From a virus (Duplodnaviria; Caudoviricetes): a DNA stretch of 52,143 bases. Shown here piece after piece: positions 3,920-44,001 of this stretch (within the stretch, counting starts at the first letter, position 1; the number at the start of each line of letters is the position of its first letter). The notes under the pieces were generated by a model, which was not told the DNA's origin, ran no database searches, and saw nothing but the letters and a program-made list of their open reading frames with translations. The stretch covers positions 1 to 52,143 of IMG/VR virus record IMGVR_UViG_3300048851_000225; one strand, written 5' to 3'. Both the position numbers and the translations under genes were made by a program.

Positions 3920-4210
3920 TCAAAGCCGAGGCGCCACGCACGGCAGAGTGACAGCCTCAAGCCGCGCCGTGTAATCCCACAACAGGACATATCCCGTTCC
4001 AAGCGCGCCGACGCCCCGGCCTGACGGCATGCGCGCGATCTCTTGCGGCGCCTGCATGTCCGGCCGCGCTGGCATCTCCGAAATGCACTTCGTTGGCACT
4101 TCCACCTCGACGGTGACCGTGCGCACCACCGGCTCCGGCCGCACAACCGGCACCGCGCCGCATCCGGCCAGCACCAGGGCACTACCGGCCCACAGCAGAA
4201 CTGAACGCAT
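3920..4210 (-). CDS. o-spanin (Rz1-like lipoprotein)
   Basis: Lipobox LVLAG-C, Pro-rich, overlaps the end of the i-spanin gene. Confidence 0.75.
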   Translation of the reverse strand: MRSVLLWAGSALVLAGCGAVPVVRPEPVVRTVTVEVEVPTKCISEMPARPDMQAPQEIARMPSGRGVGALGTGYVLLWDYTARLEAVTLPCVAPRL

Positions 4211-35787: not shown

Positions 35788-36792
35788 ATGCCTGCCCTTC
35801 CCTTGAACCAAGAACAAAAAGCCGACGCGGAGCGTCTCAAAGTCCTTTTCAAGCGCTGGCAACAGCTGCGGAAGGATGCCGGTCAGCCTGCATCGCAGGA
35901 CGCGGTGGCACCGCTATTCGGATTTGGGCAAAGCGCACTGAGCCAGTACCTCAATGGGGCAATCCCGCTCAACGTGGACGCGCTGACCAAGTTCGCCGAA
36001 TTGTTGGGCTGTGCGCCGGAGGACATCAGTCCTGAGCTGGCAAAGACCATCGGTCGCTATGCGATCTACACACCCACGCCGAAGCAAGGATTTGCCGTCG
36101 CAGACGAAGGTGCGGTGTATGGCGGACGCAAGTCCGCTGGCAAGGAGCGCGGAACGCTTCCGTGGCCCTTCCCTCGCATTCCAGAATCGCAATTGCGCGA
36201 GCTGCCGCCCGCCGACCTGGCTCGCGTTGAAGGCGCCTTGGCGCTTGCAATGGCGCAGTTGGGGCTCGGGGTGCAGGTAACGCCCGTCCTGCTGGCCGCT
36301 GAAGCCCAGGCACCAGCTTCTGTCCGCTCGCAACAGCCCGGCGACGTGTTGCCGCCTGGAGCAGCCGCCAACGATGACTACATCGAGATCAATCAGTACG
36401 ACGTGCGCTTTGCTGCTGGCGAGGGCACGCTCGCATTCGAGGCCAACCCGCGAAACAAGCTGGCGTTCCGCCGGTCATTCTTGCGCGCCGAGCGCCTGCG
36501 CGCGAAGAATCTCATCGTCGTCTATGCACAGGGCGATTCGATGGAACCGGTCGTCCCTCACCGGGCGGCGCTGCTGATCGACCGAGGCGCGCGCGACCTT
36601 GAGGATGGGGCGAACGGGAAGATTTTCGGCTTCCGCCTAGACGGCGAGCTGCGCGTGAAGCGCCTGGAGCGCCTGAACGACGGCAGCATCTGCGCGCACT
36701 CGTTCAATCCCGCGTACAAGCCGATCCACCTGGACGGCAGCAAGGACTTCGAGATCATCGGGCGCGTGGTGTGGATGGGGACTAGGCTGTGA
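35788..36792 (+). CDS. cI: CI repressor, HTH + S24 peptidase (334 aa)
   Basis: GQSALSQYLNG HTH; AAG cleavage site; GDSMEP Ser; VKRL Lys. Confidence 0.93.
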   Translation: MPALPLNQEQKADAERLKVLFKRWQQLRKDAGQPASQDAVAPLFGFGQSALSQYLNGAIPLNVDALTKFAELLGCAPEDISPELAKTIGRYAIYTPTPKQGFAVADEGAVYGGRKSAGKERGTLPWPFPRIPESQLRELPPADLARVEGALALAMAQLGLGVQVTPVLLAAEAQAPASVRSQQPGDVLPPGAAANDDYIEINQYDVRFAAGEGTLAFEANPRNKLAFRRSFLRAERLRAKNLIVVYAQGDSMEPVVPHRAALLIDRGARDLEDGANGKIFGFRLDGELRVKRLERLNDGSICAHSFNPAYKPIHLDGSKDFEIIGRVVWMGTRL

Positions 36793-38519: not shown

Positions 38520-38561
38520 ATTAGTCCGGCTGTTGACACGCCCAAGCAGTCGGACTAATAT
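38520..38561 (+). promoter_or_regulatory. OL operators with pL
   Basis: ATTAGTCCGGCTGTT (38520) and AGCAGTCGGACTAAT (38545) match OR; TTGACA-17-TAATAT. Confidence 0.88.
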
Positions 38562-38644
38562 TTCTTCATCGCAGCAAACAACTGCGCCGCAAGACCCCTC
38601 GGCCCCGCAACCCATGCGGGAGGACGTATCCGCGACGAACACGG

Positions 38645-39097
38645 GTGGGGATGGGAAAGGAGAAAGAAGTGGAACGGTTCTGGGCAAAGGTGGACAAGAC
38701 CGGCGCGTGTTGGGAGTGGACGGCAGCCAAGGATTCATGGGGCTACGGACGATTCAGCATCGACGGGAAGCTCTACGGAGCGCACCGCGTTTCCTGGGAA
38801 TTGGCCTACGGCGATCTCCCCGACGACATGTCGGTTCTGCACCGCTGCGACAACCGCAAGTGCGTGAACCCTGGGCATCTCTTCCTGGGAACTCACCAGG
38901 AAAACATGCTGGACATGAAGTTGAAGAAAAGAAGCCGGTCCGGAGAAAGCGCACACCACGCCAAGCTCGGGCCGGCCTCGGTGGAGGAGATCCGATCACT
39001 CGCGGCGACGGGAGTGCTGCAGCGGGATTTGGCGCTGAAGTTCGGCGTCAGCACCCGTCAGATTCGCCGGATCTTGAGCAAGGAGAACTGGGCCTGA
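38645..39097 (+). CDS. HNH endonuclease with C-terminal HTH
   Basis: RFWAKV..CWEW..GYG..AHRVSW..VLHRCDN..CVNP.HL..GT..EN; LALKFGVS. Confidence 0.9.
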   Translation: MGMGKEKEVERFWAKVDKTGACWEWTAAKDSWGYGRFSIDGKLYGAHRVSWELAYGDLPDDMSVLHRCDNRKCVNPGHLFLGTHQENMLDMKLKKRSRSGESAHHAKLGPASVEEIRSLAATGVLQRDLALKFGVSTRQIRRILSKENWA

Positions 39098-39123
39098 GCC
39101 TGGTTCGAAGCAAGACGCAAGAC

Positions 39124-39134
39124 CGCTCCTTAAC
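39124..39134 (+). promoter_or_regulatory. boxA-like element followed by a hairpin
   Basis: CGCTCCTTAAC resembles lambdoid/rrn boxA; GCCGG-tagaa-CCGGC hairpin follows. Confidence 0.5.
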
Positions 39135-39336
39135 CATCGGCGCGCCGGTAGAACCGGCCGCCAACGATCCGATAAACAGTGCGCCCATGCATCGCATGAG
39201 ACTGCGCGCCAGCCCGACTCCCCTGGGGCTGAAGACAAACCAGGGCAATCCGTCAGGAACCGGAACGCTGCGCTCAATGAGGAGCGCGTATCGGCCTGGC
39301 GGGGACCGCGAGAGCGGCGCCTATCGAATGGGGGCG

Positions 39337-39431
39337 AGATACCCGAGTGCATCCGTTGACGTGGGACGCCAAGCCCACGGTGCACTGAGACGAGACGATT
39401 CGGCTGCTGGATACGGCAGCCGGCATCTACC
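39337..39431 (+). ncRNA. tRNA-like RNA unit 1
   Basis: AGATACC/GGCATCT acceptor-like stem (1 mismatch) stacked on GGCTGC/GCAGCC, then ACC. Confidence 0.4.
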
Positions 39432-39472
39432 GCCGCCCTGATGGCAGGACGGCGATTCATGCGGAGAAAGAT

Positions 39473-39748
39473 GTGGAGATCAACCAGTTGAAGCAGGTGA
39501 AGGTCGACGCCAAGACCCTGAAGATCCACTGCAAGGTCAGCGACCGCTTCACGTATGCGATCGAAGACGCGCAGGGCCAGACGATCCACGAACAAGACGA
39601 CGGCTACGTGCCGGACTTCATGCCCGGCGAACACTACGGCGACTACGTGATTCTGGACATCGATCTGGACACCGGCGTCGTGAAGAACTGGAAGGCGCCG
39701 ACGGCCGCGCAGATCGAGCAGGCCATCAAACCGCAAGACGACGACTGA
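39473..39748 (+). CDS. Acidic hypothetical phage protein
   Basis: KVSDRF...GYVPDFMPGEHYGDYVILDIDLDTG..NWK; GGAG SD. Confidence 0.8.
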   Translation: MEINQLKQVKVDAKTLKIHCKVSDRFTYAIEDAQGQTIHEQDDGYVPDFMPGEHYGDYVILDIDLDTGVVKNWKAPTAAQIEQAIKPQDDD

Positions 39749-39860
39749 ACGACCTGTCCTGCCCCGCCGGCAGGGCCATCACACATGCGCCTGGATAGAC
39801 ACTCGCATAGAACCTTGCCCGGAAGGCATCCCCTACTCACACAGGGCCGGGCGCAGTTGT

Positions 39861-39980
39861 GATGGTGAGCAAGACGCGCAGGCGATGCGCACGGTGCCCG
39901 AAAAGGGAGAACGACCAAGCCGAGCTCAGGGGCCACGCCCCGATAGCGCAAGCCGGGATCGCTTCCGGCCGCCATCAACC
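39861..39980 (+). ncRNA. tRNA-like RNA unit 2
   Basis: 7-bp GATGGTG/CGCCATC plus 5-bp GCCGG/CCGGC arm, internal hairpins, AACC tail. Confidence 0.55.
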
Positions 39981-40001
39981 CGACCCTTCCACAGGACTGT
40001 A

Positions 40002-40094
40002 ATGGATACGACAAACTTTCCGCGCCCCACACCGACGCCCATTCATCAACCGATTCCTACTCCGATGCCGTCGCCTCGCGAACGTCGCGGGTAA
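40002..40094 (+). CDS. Pro-rich peptide (30 aa)
   Basis: CAGGA SD; MDTTNFPRPTPTPIHQPIPTPMPSPRERRG. Confidence 0.35.
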   Translation: MDTTNFPRPTPTPIHQPIPTPMPSPRERRG

Positions 40095-40210
40095 CTGACA
40101 TCAATGTGCCCTGGAATCACAAGGGCACCCTCATACCCCGGAATGCAGATTCACCGGCCGACATGTGGGATACGCATGCGGCGGAGCTTGGTCGAACAGG
40201 CGCGGGATAT

Positions 40211-40324
40211 GAGGGTGAGCAGGAAACCAGCAGGTCACCGGACTATGTAAGCCGGCCAGCCAGGAACACCACGGCGGTAAGTCGTGCCGCTGGCATACGG
40301 GTAGCCCCCGGCCACCCTCACCCA
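40211..40324 (+). ncRNA. tRNA-like RNA unit 3
   Basis: Perfect 7-bp GAGGGTG/CACCCTC plus GCTGG/CCGGC arm, ACCCA tail. Confidence 0.55.
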
Positions 40325-40358
40325 ATGCGCCCGAAGCTGCGTCCGCAAGGCCAGATCT

Positions 40359-40413
40359 GAGGGGTAGACCGCCGCAACACCCAGGCGGGCAGTCCGGTGG
40401 AAGCCCGGCCCTC
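40359..40413 (+). ncRNA. Minimal tRNA-like RNA unit 4
   Basis: GAGGG/CCCTC plus CCGG-TGGAAGC-CCGG (7-nt loop). Confidence 0.4.
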
Positions 40414-40463
40414 TTCGGTTCCGCGCCCGGCGGGTATCTCCGGGCATTCCCCTTGGAGCACCG

Positions 40464-40667
40464 ATGATCCCGCGATGGCACAGCCCATACCTCGGCGGCG
40501 TCCGCTCGACTCGCGCCGAAGCCGACTACTACGACGGGCCCGACGACGAGCCCGACCCTGACCCGGACGCACACCGCTGGCCTCGTCGAGAGGCTGCCAT
40601 CAAACGACTGACCCGCTGGCGAGAGCGCCGGGCAGCAACCCAGGAAGCAACCCATGAACTGGCTTGA
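40464..40667 (+). CDS. Hypothetical protein
   Basis: GGAG SD; first gene after the RNA cluster. Confidence 0.55.
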   Translation: MIPRWHSPYLGGVRSTRAEADYYDGPDDEPDPDPDAHRWPRREAAIKRLTRWRERRAATQEATHELA

Positions 40668-40770
40668 TACCGCAATGCTCCTGCTCGCTGCTGGCGCGCC
40701 AACGCTGATCATCTGCGCGGCCGCCGAGGTGTGGATGAATGACCGGAAGTGGACGGGAGAAAAGCGATGA
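40654..40770 (+). CDS. Small membrane peptide (38 aa, not in track)
   Basis: MNWLDTAMLLLAAGAPTLIICAAAEVW...; ATGA coupling to the next gene. Confidence 0.45.
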   Translation: MNWLDTAMLLLAAGAPTLIICAAAEVWMNDRKWTGEKR

Positions 40771-41120
40771 GCAAGCAGGCACACACCCGCGGGCCCTGGC
40801 AGCAACTGCCCGAAGAGGTCGACAAGAGCTACATCCGCATCCGTGGAACGCAGCTGGGCCGCCGCTACAAGGTGGCGAACGTGCTGACCCCAACGTACGA
40901 AGGCGCGCCCGAGCAGGAAGCCGAACAGACGAGGGCAAACGCCCACCTGATCGCTGCCGCGCCAGACCTCCTGCAAGCGCTCATTGAGGTGACTGCTTCC
41001 CTCGCATGGAACGCGCACGGCGAGTGCCGGGCGGTTCACGACGGTCCAATCATGCCTTCAAGCCAGGCGGTCGGAGTAGCCCGCGCCGCGATTGCCAAAG
41101 CGACGGGGAGCGCGCCATGA
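40767..41120 (+). CDS. Phage protein of the HTPGPW...ANARLIAAAPDLL type
   Basis: HTRGPW, ANAHLIAAAPDLLQAL, ARAAIAKATG. Confidence 0.8.
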   Translation: MSKQAHTRGPWQQLPEEVDKSYIRIRGTQLGRRYKVANVLTPTYEGAPEQEAEQTRANAHLIAAAPDLLQALIEVTASLAWNAHGECRAVHDGPIMPSSQAVGVARAAIAKATGSAP

Positions 41121-42605: not shown

Positions 42606-43346
42606 ATGAGCGAAGTGATCGAAATGCAGCGCACGGCTGTTGCCACAGCGCCGGCCACCGCAACGCCGGCGGACCTGCTGCGCATCGCCGTGGAAGGCGG
42701 CGCCGACCTCGATAAGCTGGAGCGACTGATGGCGCTGCAGGAGCGCTGGGAAGCGCAACAGGCGAAGCGCGCCTACGACCAGGCCTTCGCCGCTTTCAAG
42801 GCCGAAGCCGTCACCATCATCAAGGGTCGCAACGTGACCGACGGCCCGCTCAAGGGCAAGAGCTACGCGGAACTGCACGACGTGGTGAACGCCGTGACAC
42901 CCGCACTCTCGCGTCATGGCCTGTCCTCGTCGTGGAAGCTCACGAAGGACGAGAAGGACTGGATGGAGGTCACCTGCTATGTCCGCCACGTTGGCGGCCA
43001 CCAGGAATCGGTGTCGATGGGCGGCCCGCCGGACACCGGCGGCGCGAAGAACGCCATTCAGGCGCGCGCCAGCACGAAGACCTACCTCGAGCGCTACACG
43101 CTCAAGGCCATCACCGGGCTGTCCGAGCAGAGCGACGACTCCGACGGCAACACGCCCAAGGTCGATGCCCTCCTCGACTGGATCGCGAAAGTCGACGAGT
43201 CGCAGAGCGAGGATGACCTCCGCGCGACCTCGAAGGCGGGCTCGAAGTACTTCCAAGTCACCAAGAACCGCGACGGCTACGCCAAGTTTGTAGCCGCCGT
43301 CCAGGCGCGCGGCGCCGCGCTGAAGAAGAGAGCCCAACATGGCTGA
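42606..43346 (+). CDS. ERF-family single-strand annealing protein
   Basis: LDKLERLM, YAEL.DV...LSRHGL, KNAIQA..S..TY..RYTL..I.GL...DDSDG. Confidence 0.85.
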   Translation: MSEVIEMQRTAVATAPATATPADLLRIAVEGGADLDKLERLMALQERWEAQQAKRAYDQAFAAFKAEAVTIIKGRNVTDGPLKGKSYAELHDVVNAVTPALSRHGLSSSWKLTKDEKDWMEVTCYVRHVGGHQESVSMGGPPDTGGAKNAIQARASTKTYLERYTLKAITGLSEQSDDSDGNTPKVDALLDWIAKVDESQSEDDLRATSKAGSKYFQVTKNRDGYAKFVAAVQARGAALKKRAQHG

Positions 43347-44001
43347 CACGCTGTTCCGCTGCTCATCGATCGGCAAGCTGATGACCGAGCCCAAGACCCA
43401 GAAGGAAGGCCCGCTGTCGGTGGGCGCGAAGACCTACATCCGCCAGCTCGCGGCGCAGGAGATCTTCGGCGTCGACTTCGAGATTTCCAGCAAGCACATC
43501 GAGAAGGGCCTGCAGGTCGAGCCGGAGTCGATCGCATTGCTCAACCGGGTGCGCGGCCTGGGCCTGGAAAAGAACGCCGAGCGGCGCAGCAACGGACTGA
43601 TCACCGGCGAGTGTGACCTGTTCGACGCTGGCCGGCGCCGCGGCCACGATCTGAAATCGTCATGGTCGATCGCCACCTTCCCCATCGCGGTCGCTGATTG
43701 CGAGGACAAGCTCTACGAATGGCAGATGCGCGGCTACATGGCTCTGTGGGATGCGGACGAGTGGGAGGTGAACTACGCGCTCGTAGACACTCCCGAGAAG
43801 CTGATCGGCTACGAGCCATTCCAGCTGCACGTCGTGTCGCACATCCCCGAGCCGCTGCGGCTCACGACCTGGCGCATCACGCGCGACGCGGAGAAAGAAG
43901 CCGCGATCTTCCAGAAGGTGCTCTACGCCCGCGAGTACCTCGCCCAAGTCATCGAAGAGTTTGCCCGCACCCACCAGATCGCCGAGCCGCTCGCGGCCTG
44001 A
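43339..44001 (+). CDS. Lambda-exo/YqaJ-like exonuclease
   Basis: FRCSS.GKLM, KG..VE, TGECD, DLKSSW, YEWQMRGYM.L. Confidence 0.85.
   Translation: MADTLFRCSSIGKLMTEPKTQKEGPLSVGAKTYIRQLAAQEIFGVDFEISSKHIEKGLQVEPESIALLNRVRGLGLEKNAERRSNGLITGECDLFDAGRRRGHDLKSSWSIATFPIAVADCEDKLYEWQMRGYMALWDADEWEVNYALVDTPEKLIGYEPFQLHVVSHIPEPLRLTTWRITRDAEKEAAIFQKVLYAREYLAQVIEEFARTHQIAEPLAA

Follow-up and report, generated by a model that had tools for sequence, protein, structure and literature searches.

The window analysed here, the complete 52,143-base provirus of high G+C content in IMG/VR record IMGVR_UViG_3300048851_000225, carries within its early plus-strand operon a 715-base non-coding stretch (39749-40463) that holds two RNA modules of one design. 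Each module consists of a small hairpin, a 15-19 base-pair (bp) helix in which an upstream strand, X(up), pairs with a second strand, X', around a variable domain, and a unit of ~110-116 nucleotides (nt) whose 7-bp closing stem pairs X' with a downstream strand, X(down). In each unit this closing stem abuts a hairpin, as the acceptor stem of a transfer RNA (tRNA) abuts the T arm. X' has a double role, forming the last 7 nt of the upstream helix as well as the 5' strand of the unit's 7-bp stem, and the two pairings exclude each other because one X' strand is common to both. An earlier sequence-only reading had proposed this mutually exclusive arrangement and had seen it twice, with different sequences, and our analysis bears out both points. 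We arrive, with evenly balanced confidence, at tandem tRNA-derived modules in which a locked precursor would be converted by strand exchange or by a nuclease, gating the processing of the early transcript.

Read 5' to 3', all copies share the order small hairpin (h0), X(up) with its extension, domain A, extension' with X', unit B, hairpin and X(down). In module 1 of the window, the 3' base of hairpin h0-1 (39758-39774, from minimum free energy (MFE) prediction) abuts X(up)1, and the 5' arm of the long helix, or 'anti-acceptor', spans 39776-39794, with CCATCACA at 39776-39783 and the extension TGCGCCTGG at 39786-39794; it belongs to inverted repeat I2 and has pair probabilities of 0.77-1.00. 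Domain A1 (39795-39846) inside this helix is reduced here, larger in relatives and tRNA-like in some of them. The 3' arm (39847-39867) contains CCGGGCGCA at 39847-39855 and TGTGATGG at 39858-39865, and its last 7 nt, GATGGTG (39861-39867), are the 5' closing-stem strand of the 116-nt tRNA-like unit 2, or B1 (39861-39976). Beyond its 7-bp closing stem, unit 2 has, on its 5' side, a conserved hairpin (GCGCA...TGCGC) and, immediately ahead of X(down)1, one that resembles a T arm (39952-39969). X(down)1, CGCCATC (39970-39976), forms seven of seven pairs with 39861-39867 and is followed by A and then ACC.

Module 2 repeats this plan on the same plus strand. The last 3 nt of hairpin h0-2 (40106-40128 in the MFE structure) lie within X(up)2, whose arm with its extension (40126-40140, inverted repeat I6) starts with CACCCTCATA at 40126-40135. 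The second helix encloses domain A2 (40141-40202), which is 90% identical in L003, the nearest relative among the related loci that we designate by L and a number, and closes with extension' and X'2 (40203-40217, including TATGAGGGTG at 40208-40217). Its last 7 nt, GAGGGTG (40211-40217), begin the 109-nt tRNA-like unit 3, or B2 (40211-40319), which has five helices and scores 110.9 bits with our unit-3 model R1. A hairpin at 40298-40310, plus 2 bp, adjoins the stem 40211-40217/40313-40319, in which X(down)2, CACCCTC (40313-40319), again forms seven of seven pairs before A and then CCC. Every string singled out by the sequence-only reading lies where it was placed, including the AGGGC that was said to precede both upstream copies and that we find at 39772-39776 and 40122-40126, at the 3' base of the small hairpin. 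An h0 equivalent ends no more than 3 nt from X(up) in 22 of 27 aligned modules.

Within the window, the two upstream helices stand out from shuffled sequence. I2 (39776-39794/39847-39865) is 84% complementary over 19 nt and I6 (40126-40140/40203-40217) 93% complementary over 15 nt. For module 1 the best upstream duplex is predicted at -34.8 kcal/mol, an energy that 1 of 60 shuffled upstream regions attains, and for module 2 at -27.0 kcal/mol, attained by 3 of 60; an ungapped count, which misses the bulged helix of module 1, finds 14 pairs in module 2 and as many in 0 of 100 shuffles. The downstream 7-bp stem is not significant by length alone, with equally long helices present in most shuffles of a 230-nt span, and it takes its weight from its fixed place right after a hairpin and from conservation in relatives.

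That conservation extends to ~30 homologous modules with both pairings kept, in prophages, viral contigs and Bordetella phages, and it includes the upstream helix, on which the sequence-only proposal depended. The best upstream duplex pairs at least five of the seven acceptor-strand bases in 31 of 33 module instances, the exceptions being the truncated L108 and the low-GC L166. Measured by duplex energy, 22 of the 33 are matched by 0 of 60 shuffles, 8 by 1-3 of 60 and 3 by more. In these comparisons X(up) was assigned by RNAduplex and X(down) by anchored positions, some counts come from our own scripts and curated module lists, and the X(down) counts for modules of the unit-2 type take the best of several hairpin-adjacent positions and are upper bounds.

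To assess covariation in the upstream helix we used ten base pairs in a MAFFT alignment of 27 modules, with columns placed by sequence and not by pairing; two misaligned rows (L118 and L169) were retained and weigh against the structure. X(up) and X' are paired in 87.6% of cells, compared to 70.5% in shuffles and 28-58% in slid controls, and the covariation score of 0.456 (0.175 for shuffles) is equalled by 0 of 500 shuffles. For the unit-3 type, a structure first seen with RNAalifold has 29 pairs that are 95.0% paired across 16 sequences, 12 of them with changes on both sides (0 of 500 shuffles), compared to 31-54% pairing in slid controls. Helix 1 of this structure is the X'/X(down) stem; four of its nine pairs have changes on both sides and its pairing is 87.3%, figures that include three sequences without X(down) and two offset by an indel.

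The sequence-only reading had called for three-way covariation, and the same X' positions indeed co-vary with both partners across the ~30 homologous modules. At position 3 of X' (U or G), as at position 2 (A or G), both partners vary in step, seen at pairs 28/328 and 29/327 of the 27-module alignment and at pairs 6/121 and 5/122 of the 16-sequence alignment. X(up) and X(down) are often non-identical and pair with X' through different G.U solutions (L156, L106, L107 and L149): L156 has a G.U pair at different positions in its two partners, and L106 and L107 have U in X(up) where X(down) has C. In the duplexes we counted 56 G.U pairs versus 7 A/C mismatches, a bias that points to selection on the plus-strand RNA and not to a simple DNA repeat.

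We compared the two states by constrained folding of 26 modules, leaving out L003, L104, L108, L123, L151, L166 and L168, which have no clear partner. The predicted energy of the tRNA-like state minus that of the lock (X(up)/X') has a median of +2.1 kcal/mol and lies within 3 kcal/mol in 14 of the 26 modules; the lock is favoured in 20, and the unconstrained MFE structure uses the upstream partner in 16 and X(down) in 4. For module 1 the lock is predicted at -96.7 and the tRNA-like state at -91.1 kcal/mol, a difference of 5.6 kcal/mol, and for module 2 the states differ by 1.3 kcal/mol. The two states are thus predicted to be near-isoenergetic, and in these models the modules combine two mutually exclusive, conserved pairings of similar stability, the pattern looked for in a switch. 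When the RNA is cut 5' of X', the closed unit becomes the predicted fold. Near-equal energies and a closed fold of the 5'-truncated RNA are what would be expected if the branch point migrates along X'.

The case for tRNA ancestry comes from the relatives. Against a cut-off of 29 bits for the Rfam tRNA family (RF00005), the sequence in the B position of L112 (1866-1989) scores 39.9 bits as a tRNA, with recognisable D and T arms, a Leu-type D arm and a ~40-nt insertion. Exactly X' and X(down) make up its acceptor strands, and here too an upstream complement covers the 5' strand. Between X(up) and X' of L102, the sequence in the A position (1257-1374) scores 46.1 bits; its anticodon loop is 3 nt long, and its variable region contains an insertion of ~50 nt. 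ARAGORN called neither of these two sequences, which by appearance stand midway between tRNA genes and the derived units. Because these positional equivalents pass the tRNA threshold, we take the units to be tRNA-derived, an ancestry read from the relatives, as the window units share only their ends with the L112 and L102 equivalents.

The window copies keep only the 7-bp stem and the adjoining hairpin of a tRNA. Both units have a 7-bp stem directly continued by a T-arm-type hairpin, and neither has a D arm or an anticodon arm with a 7-nt loop, the unit-3 consensus having other helices there. The sequence-only description of the units as tRNA-like therefore stands for the abutting stem and hairpin and for the equivalents in L112 and L102, and falls for the window units as judged by ARAGORN and Rfam. 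Unit B comes in several types. Copies of the unit-2 type have in common a 5' start, a conserved hairpin and a 5-bp hairpin with an 8-nt loop before X(down); the ends of unit 2 are conserved in L100, L102, L109, L112, L116-L119 and L124, and model R1 gives a weak full-length match to unit 2 (16.6 bits, E 0.0088).

Domain A bears on a further suggestion of the sequence-only reading, that the large upstream loop might be bound by an RNA or protein acting in trans. In relatives this region is not a free loop but a structured domain, tRNA-like in L102 and in L167, where a T arm of canonical appearance forms the end of domain A; on this evidence the 'large loop' is a degenerate tRNA-like domain. The longest exact complements to the two loops elsewhere in the window are 9 and 12 nt, and shuffled loops reach 9-14 nt, which gives no backing to a trans RNA. 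For a protein partner, we clustered the open reading frames (ORFs) within 4 kb of the modules at 32 loci: no family occurs in more than seven loci, no protein neighbour is conserved, and the ORFs of the top three clusters are artefacts that overlie the RNA region.

Several observations weigh against the interpretation as tRNA-derived switches. ARAGORN finds 0 tRNA or transfer-messenger RNA (tmRNA) genes in the whole window, and Rfam 15 gives 0 matches there at gathering score, which counts against the reading as regards tRNA. X(down) is not consistently followed by CCA; the next base is A in at least roughly half of the modules, with CC after it in some. Genuine tRNA-Arg genes in these arrays lack an anti-acceptor leader, which is therefore no general part of how these phages express tRNAs. 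In the upstream covariation test, two measures out of five fall within the shuffles: the count of pairs changed on both sides (150 of 500) and that of further pair types (397 of 500). Many of the homologues are close relatives, and with about five X' types there are few independent compensatory events. X(down) has been lost from three of the 16 aligned unit-3-type modules (L003, L104 and L151), and the unit body of L108 is cut short. The upstream complement survives in all four and is weaker in L108 (4 of 7 acceptor bases; 15 of 60 shuffles as strong), which argues that the downstream stem is dispensable in some copies. The energy models behind the two-state comparison ignore tertiary structure and co-transcriptional kinetics. 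Finally, a search of sequencing runs found the sequence in DNA or unclassified contig runs and in no RNA run.

Looser searches agree with the absence of known families. At E up to 10, Rfam returns only three weak, chance-level matches in 39000-41000, none of them tRNA, and across 16 related loci the modules are unmatched save for the two tRNA-like hits and unrelated neighbours. Known classes that we considered and set aside include standard and permuted tmRNA (RF00023, RF01850, RF04321), with no match in the window and a presence in the relative L175 only; a riboswitch or cis-regulatory class, for which there was no Rfam aptamer match and no plus-strand terminator-like site; GOLLD, ROOL and the other large phage RNAs in Rfam, with no model match; and Y RNA (YrlA), with no Rfam match and no conserved protein neighbour at 32 loci, Ro/TROVE proteins not having been specifically searched for.

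How the modules might work can be outlined from their order, and we infer transcription, folding order, the nucleases and the downstream role of any released RNAs on that footing. X(up) would be transcribed first and capture X', so that the lock would win initially and yield a locked precursor. X(down) could then displace X(up) by branch migration, giving the tRNA-like fold of unit B; alternatively, a nuclease might remove the upstream strand with the same outcome. This competition may order or gate the processing of the early transcript by host ribonucleases (RNases), setting free stable tRNA-like small RNAs, punctuating the polycistronic mRNA, or both. Candidate enzymes are RNase III, for the 15-21 bp helix stacked on h0; RNase P, for the tRNA-like end of the units; and RNase E, for the few A/U-rich linkers with the motif TTAACC, which several relatives have ahead of h0 and which the window has at 39131-39136. 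That the switch gates maturation, as the sequence-only reading also supposed, is something we infer from the modelled competition.

A more specific proposal, to which we attach rather little credence, is that the units form a new phage class of bistable tRNA mimics that are inactive in the early transcript, are released by RNases at a set time or under a set condition and act on enzymes that read acceptor ends. The strand-exchange switch in tandem domains would hold the mimics until host RNase P, RNase III or RNase E acts, and the released acceptor/T-arm mimics might serve as decoys for defence or toxin enzymes that target tRNA.

Among alternatives to the tRNA-derived switch, the one that survives best, unlikely though we find it, is a static multi-domain RNA of ~700 nt in the manner of GOLLD or ROOL, in which the upstream helix is the only native pairing and X(down) is the remnant of a tRNA gene. 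The predicted preference for the lock (20 of 26 modules) and for the upstream partner in unconstrained folds (16 versus 4 of 26) suits this view, as does the loss of X(down) from 3 of 16 unit-3 homologues that kept X(up)/X'. The modules are also flanked by more conserved structure, namely an element that we call 'dn' and a downstream element in relatives, and the plus strand of the region folds better than shuffles (z = -2.14). A decaying relic would not, however, be expected to show X(down)/X' co-variation through changes unlike those of X(up). The 7-bp X(down) position right after the hairpin is moreover kept in two otherwise different unit types, and Rfam gives no match, GOLLD and ROOL included.

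We consider it improbable that the stretch is instead a cis-regulatory leader, in which the alternative pairings would tune translation or stability of p67 (40464 onward) and the recombination genes, with unit 3 as the sensor. An ORF lies directly downstream with GGAG 8-11 nt before its ATG, the 76 nt ahead of it (40395-40470, the leader 3' of the dn element) are 88% conserved in L003, and the units are compact, multi-helical and aptamer-like. Yet 145-690 nt separate the switch strands from the start codon, the ribosome-binding site lies clear of them, no plus-strand terminator-like site is present, and known aptamer families do not match. The downstream gene varies among relatives while the modules persist, and modules also occur in the tRNA/tmRNA cluster of a 94-kb phage, where no ORF is directly served.

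Very improbable, in our estimate, is a feature of the DNA itself, with X(up) and X(down) as direct repeats and X' inverted, marking recombination or cassette borders. Its appeal comes from the 93% block shared with L003, which spans 40125-40313 and so has module 2 strands at its limits, X(up)2 at the start and X(down)2 just past the end, and from homology that ends exactly before X(down) in several relatives in a highly mosaic neighbourhood. Against this, X(up) and X(down) often differ and still pair with X' by G.U, which holds for the plus-strand RNA only (the 56 versus 7 count); X sequences differ between modules of one genome, leaving no common recombinase site; and the helices reach 15-21 bp, well past the repeat. 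Chance or protein-coding sequence can be dismissed as barely credible: spurious helices and ORFs abound in high-GC DNA, there are overlapping ORFs of 84 and 69 codons and the 7-bp stem is not significant by itself, but codon periodicity is absent, the closest relative has an indel, the 69-codon ORF has no Pfam or PHROG match, and the conserved structure with compensatory changes in two separate tests already contradicts it.

The homologues were assembled by several searches. Starting from the flanking 91-codon protein, we recovered nine viral contigs and one Castellaniella denitrificans contig, whose neighbourhoods are highly mosaic. In the contig L003, positions 3965-4154 match window positions 40125-40313 at 93%, starting at X(up)2 and stopping directly ahead of X(down)2, limits which indicate that module borders coincide with mosaic breakpoints. 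Its upstream helix is kept through a C-to-U change that gives a G.U pair; its downstream partner is not kept. L003 has a 110-codon gene and a small membrane ORF in place of module 1.

A DNA search covering 401 genomes of the same family found copies of unit 3, ~74% identical, in nine genomes. One or both ends of unit 2 were matched in about nine further genomes, both only in L119 and L124, and the remainder of each unit 2 homologue was located by inspection; hits in L111, L113 and L114 were chance matches in coding sequence and were set aside. Scanning viral contigs and metagenomes for the pattern brought further copies along with many chance hits. Among 36 viral pattern loci, cmsearch over 27 confirmed 5 and signature plus inspection added 9, for ~14 of 36 in all, and 4 of 10 metagenome loci were real, one of them new. 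A DNA search of a phage database returned no match for the window stretch or for the low-GC relative L166, and model R1 found 0 matches among 151 genomes of an order-level sample, a result that is uninformative taken alone. In L166, positions 2200-2560 hold a unit of the unit-2 type in a viral contig of much lower GC content, with the closing stem GTTGGTG/CACCAAC containing a compensated change; its upstream complement is weak and not significant. The unit-2 type accordingly reaches beyond high-GC hosts.

Named phages carry the modules as well. A related module, from L101, is matched in nine Bordetella avium phages, and in vB_BaM-IFTN2 the module sits where the record has no annotation, with the repressor side on one flank and the exonuclease/RecT genes on the other. 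In Bordetella phage PHB04 (L175; NC_047861.1, vB_BbrM_PHB04), the modules have three tRNAs and a permuted tmRNA as neighbours in a region without annotation. This tmRNA is a circularly permuted two-piece gene at 1033-1412 that matches Rfam tmRNA_permuted (RF04321) at 104.5 bits and for which ARAGORN gives the tag ANDDYIRAAA; it follows tRNA genes for Met, Asn and Pro and is flanked by hairpin/X(up)/X' modules, and the record annotates none of these. Real tRNA-Arg(UCU) genes occur in or next to the arrays of L103, L130 and L134, and ~1.1 kb upstream of the module in L117.

The modules can be set beside several known systems. Degenerate tRNA-like RNAs are familiar from phages, the stable 'species 1 and 2' RNAs of the phage T4 tRNA region being examples. 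With tRNA genes and the degenerate tRNA-like RNAs of phage clusters (RF00005), the modules share a closing stem that abuts a hairpin and often an A after the 3' strand, and in related phages they adjoin real tRNAs and a tmRNA. They differ in that the body of the window units is made of other conserved helices, with no recognisable anticodon or D arm, and in that the 5' acceptor strand also takes part in a conserved upstream helix. GOLLD and ROOL are large RNAs associated with tRNAs, and the modules resemble them in forming a multi-domain non-coding RNA of several hundred nt in prophages; unlike these, the modules are modular, repetitive and built from tRNA-like parts.

In topology the locked state resembles a permuted tmRNA precursor (RF04321, RF01850), with a hairpin and a 3' acceptor-type strand upstream and a 5' acceptor-type strand downstream, and in PHB04 the two share a cluster. 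In contrast to the tmRNA precursor, the modules have no tag reading frame and no CCA after X(up), and they have an extra partner in standard order, X(down). With the P1/anti-P1 exchange of riboswitches, the modules have in common that the closing stem of a multi-helix domain competes with another helix for one strand, in near-isoenergetic states. The competitor in the modules, however, lies upstream of the domain and not in a downstream expression platform, and there is no terminator or masked ribosome-binding site. In the mascRNA of MALAT1, a tRNA-like element in a long transcript acts as an RNase P signal, and leader-trailer pairing that extends the acceptor stem affects maturation (PMC8457004). 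That system is eukaryotic, and cleavage in it is promoted by the pairing, in which the 3' trailer and an A-rich tract take part (PMC8457004); it has no competing third strand and no homology to the modules. A further source, PMC5389517, is taken as an analogy only.

No Rfam 15 family covers the element, the region is blank or carries only a doubtful minus-strand ORF in the GenBank records of two Bordetella phages (vB_BaM-IFTN2 and PHB04), and keyword searches of the literature, at the level of main articles, found no description of it. As far as these searches show, the new feature is the conserved anti-acceptor strand shared between tandem tRNA-like domains, tRNA-like phage RNAs as such being already known. 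Temperate phages of Bordetella, Castellaniella and other Alcaligenaceae have a conserved 650-1000-nt non-coding block in the early operon, which adds at least two RNA families for annotation, and the three-strand competition provides a concrete, testable grammar for this tRNA-derived block. The relatives suggest that tRNA genes can turn into other structured RNAs with the acceptor/T-arm end alone kept. If the competition does gate processing, bacterial viruses would have tRNA-like punctuation with a built-in timer, and if released units act on host factors, they would add an RNA class to phage-host conflict.

The provirus probably comes from a host in the Alcaligenaceae. Third-position GC periodicity, as seen in a GC3 frame plot, is absent from 39750-40460, whereas the flanking genes show it, and the closest relative has a 1-nt indel within the block; together these mark 39749-40463 as non-coding. 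The genes around it are all on the plus strand and include an HNH endonuclease gene (38645-39097) and a 91-codon ORF (39473-39748) upstream, with small ORFs from 40464, a phrog_1273 protein gene in the downstream neighbourhood, an Erf-like annealing protein gene (42606-43346) and an exonuclease gene (43339-44001) downstream; a CI-like repressor gene lies at 35788-36792. A sigma-70-like promoter-like site occurs on the plus strand at 38533-38562, and no plus-strand terminator-like site was found from there up to 41000. Given these two observations and the plus-strand genes, the stretch probably lies within the early transcript.

Between unit 3 and the next gene, the plus-strand dn element (40359-40414) forms a small three-way junction with a GAGGG/CCCTC closing stem, a CCGCC/GGCGG hairpin and a CCGG-TGGAAGC-CCGG hairpin. 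It is kept in L100 and L102 (89-91% over 54 nt), and as a Twister-sister ribozyme (RF02681) it scores 16.2 bits with E 4.6, below the 34-bit cut-off. A related hairpin, GGTGGAAG, precedes the real tRNA-Arg in L103, L130 and L134. In many relatives another conserved structured element, closed by GCAGCACCC...GGGTGCTGC and C-rich in its 5' half, precedes the next ORF ~10-150 nt past the last unit or tRNA. It is clearest in L101, L103, L130, L134, L137 and L149 and more divergent in L136 and L156; the window has no copy of it and carries the dn element in its place.

The segment linking the two modules contains a 30-codon proline-rich ORF (ATG to TAA, 40003-40095) without a codon periodicity signal. 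A second non-coding stretch, between the HNH gene and the 91-codon ORF (39098-39440), folds beyond shuffles (z = -2.9), is 90% identical in L093 and contains the TTAACC linker motif. A long-range inverted repeat in it (39134-39152/39426-39444) shares the CCATC...GATGG ends; we considered this repeat as a third X(up)/X' pair and did not count it, since the closest relative reads GATAA for GATGG and the end pairing is lost. Elsewhere among the relatives, L110 (971-1044) and L104 (250-325, minus strand) match Proteo-phage-1 (45.3 bits) and Burkholderiales-2 (92.4 bits), respectively, ~0.5-1.2 kb from the modules, which indicates that the early regions of these prophages are rich in structured RNAs.

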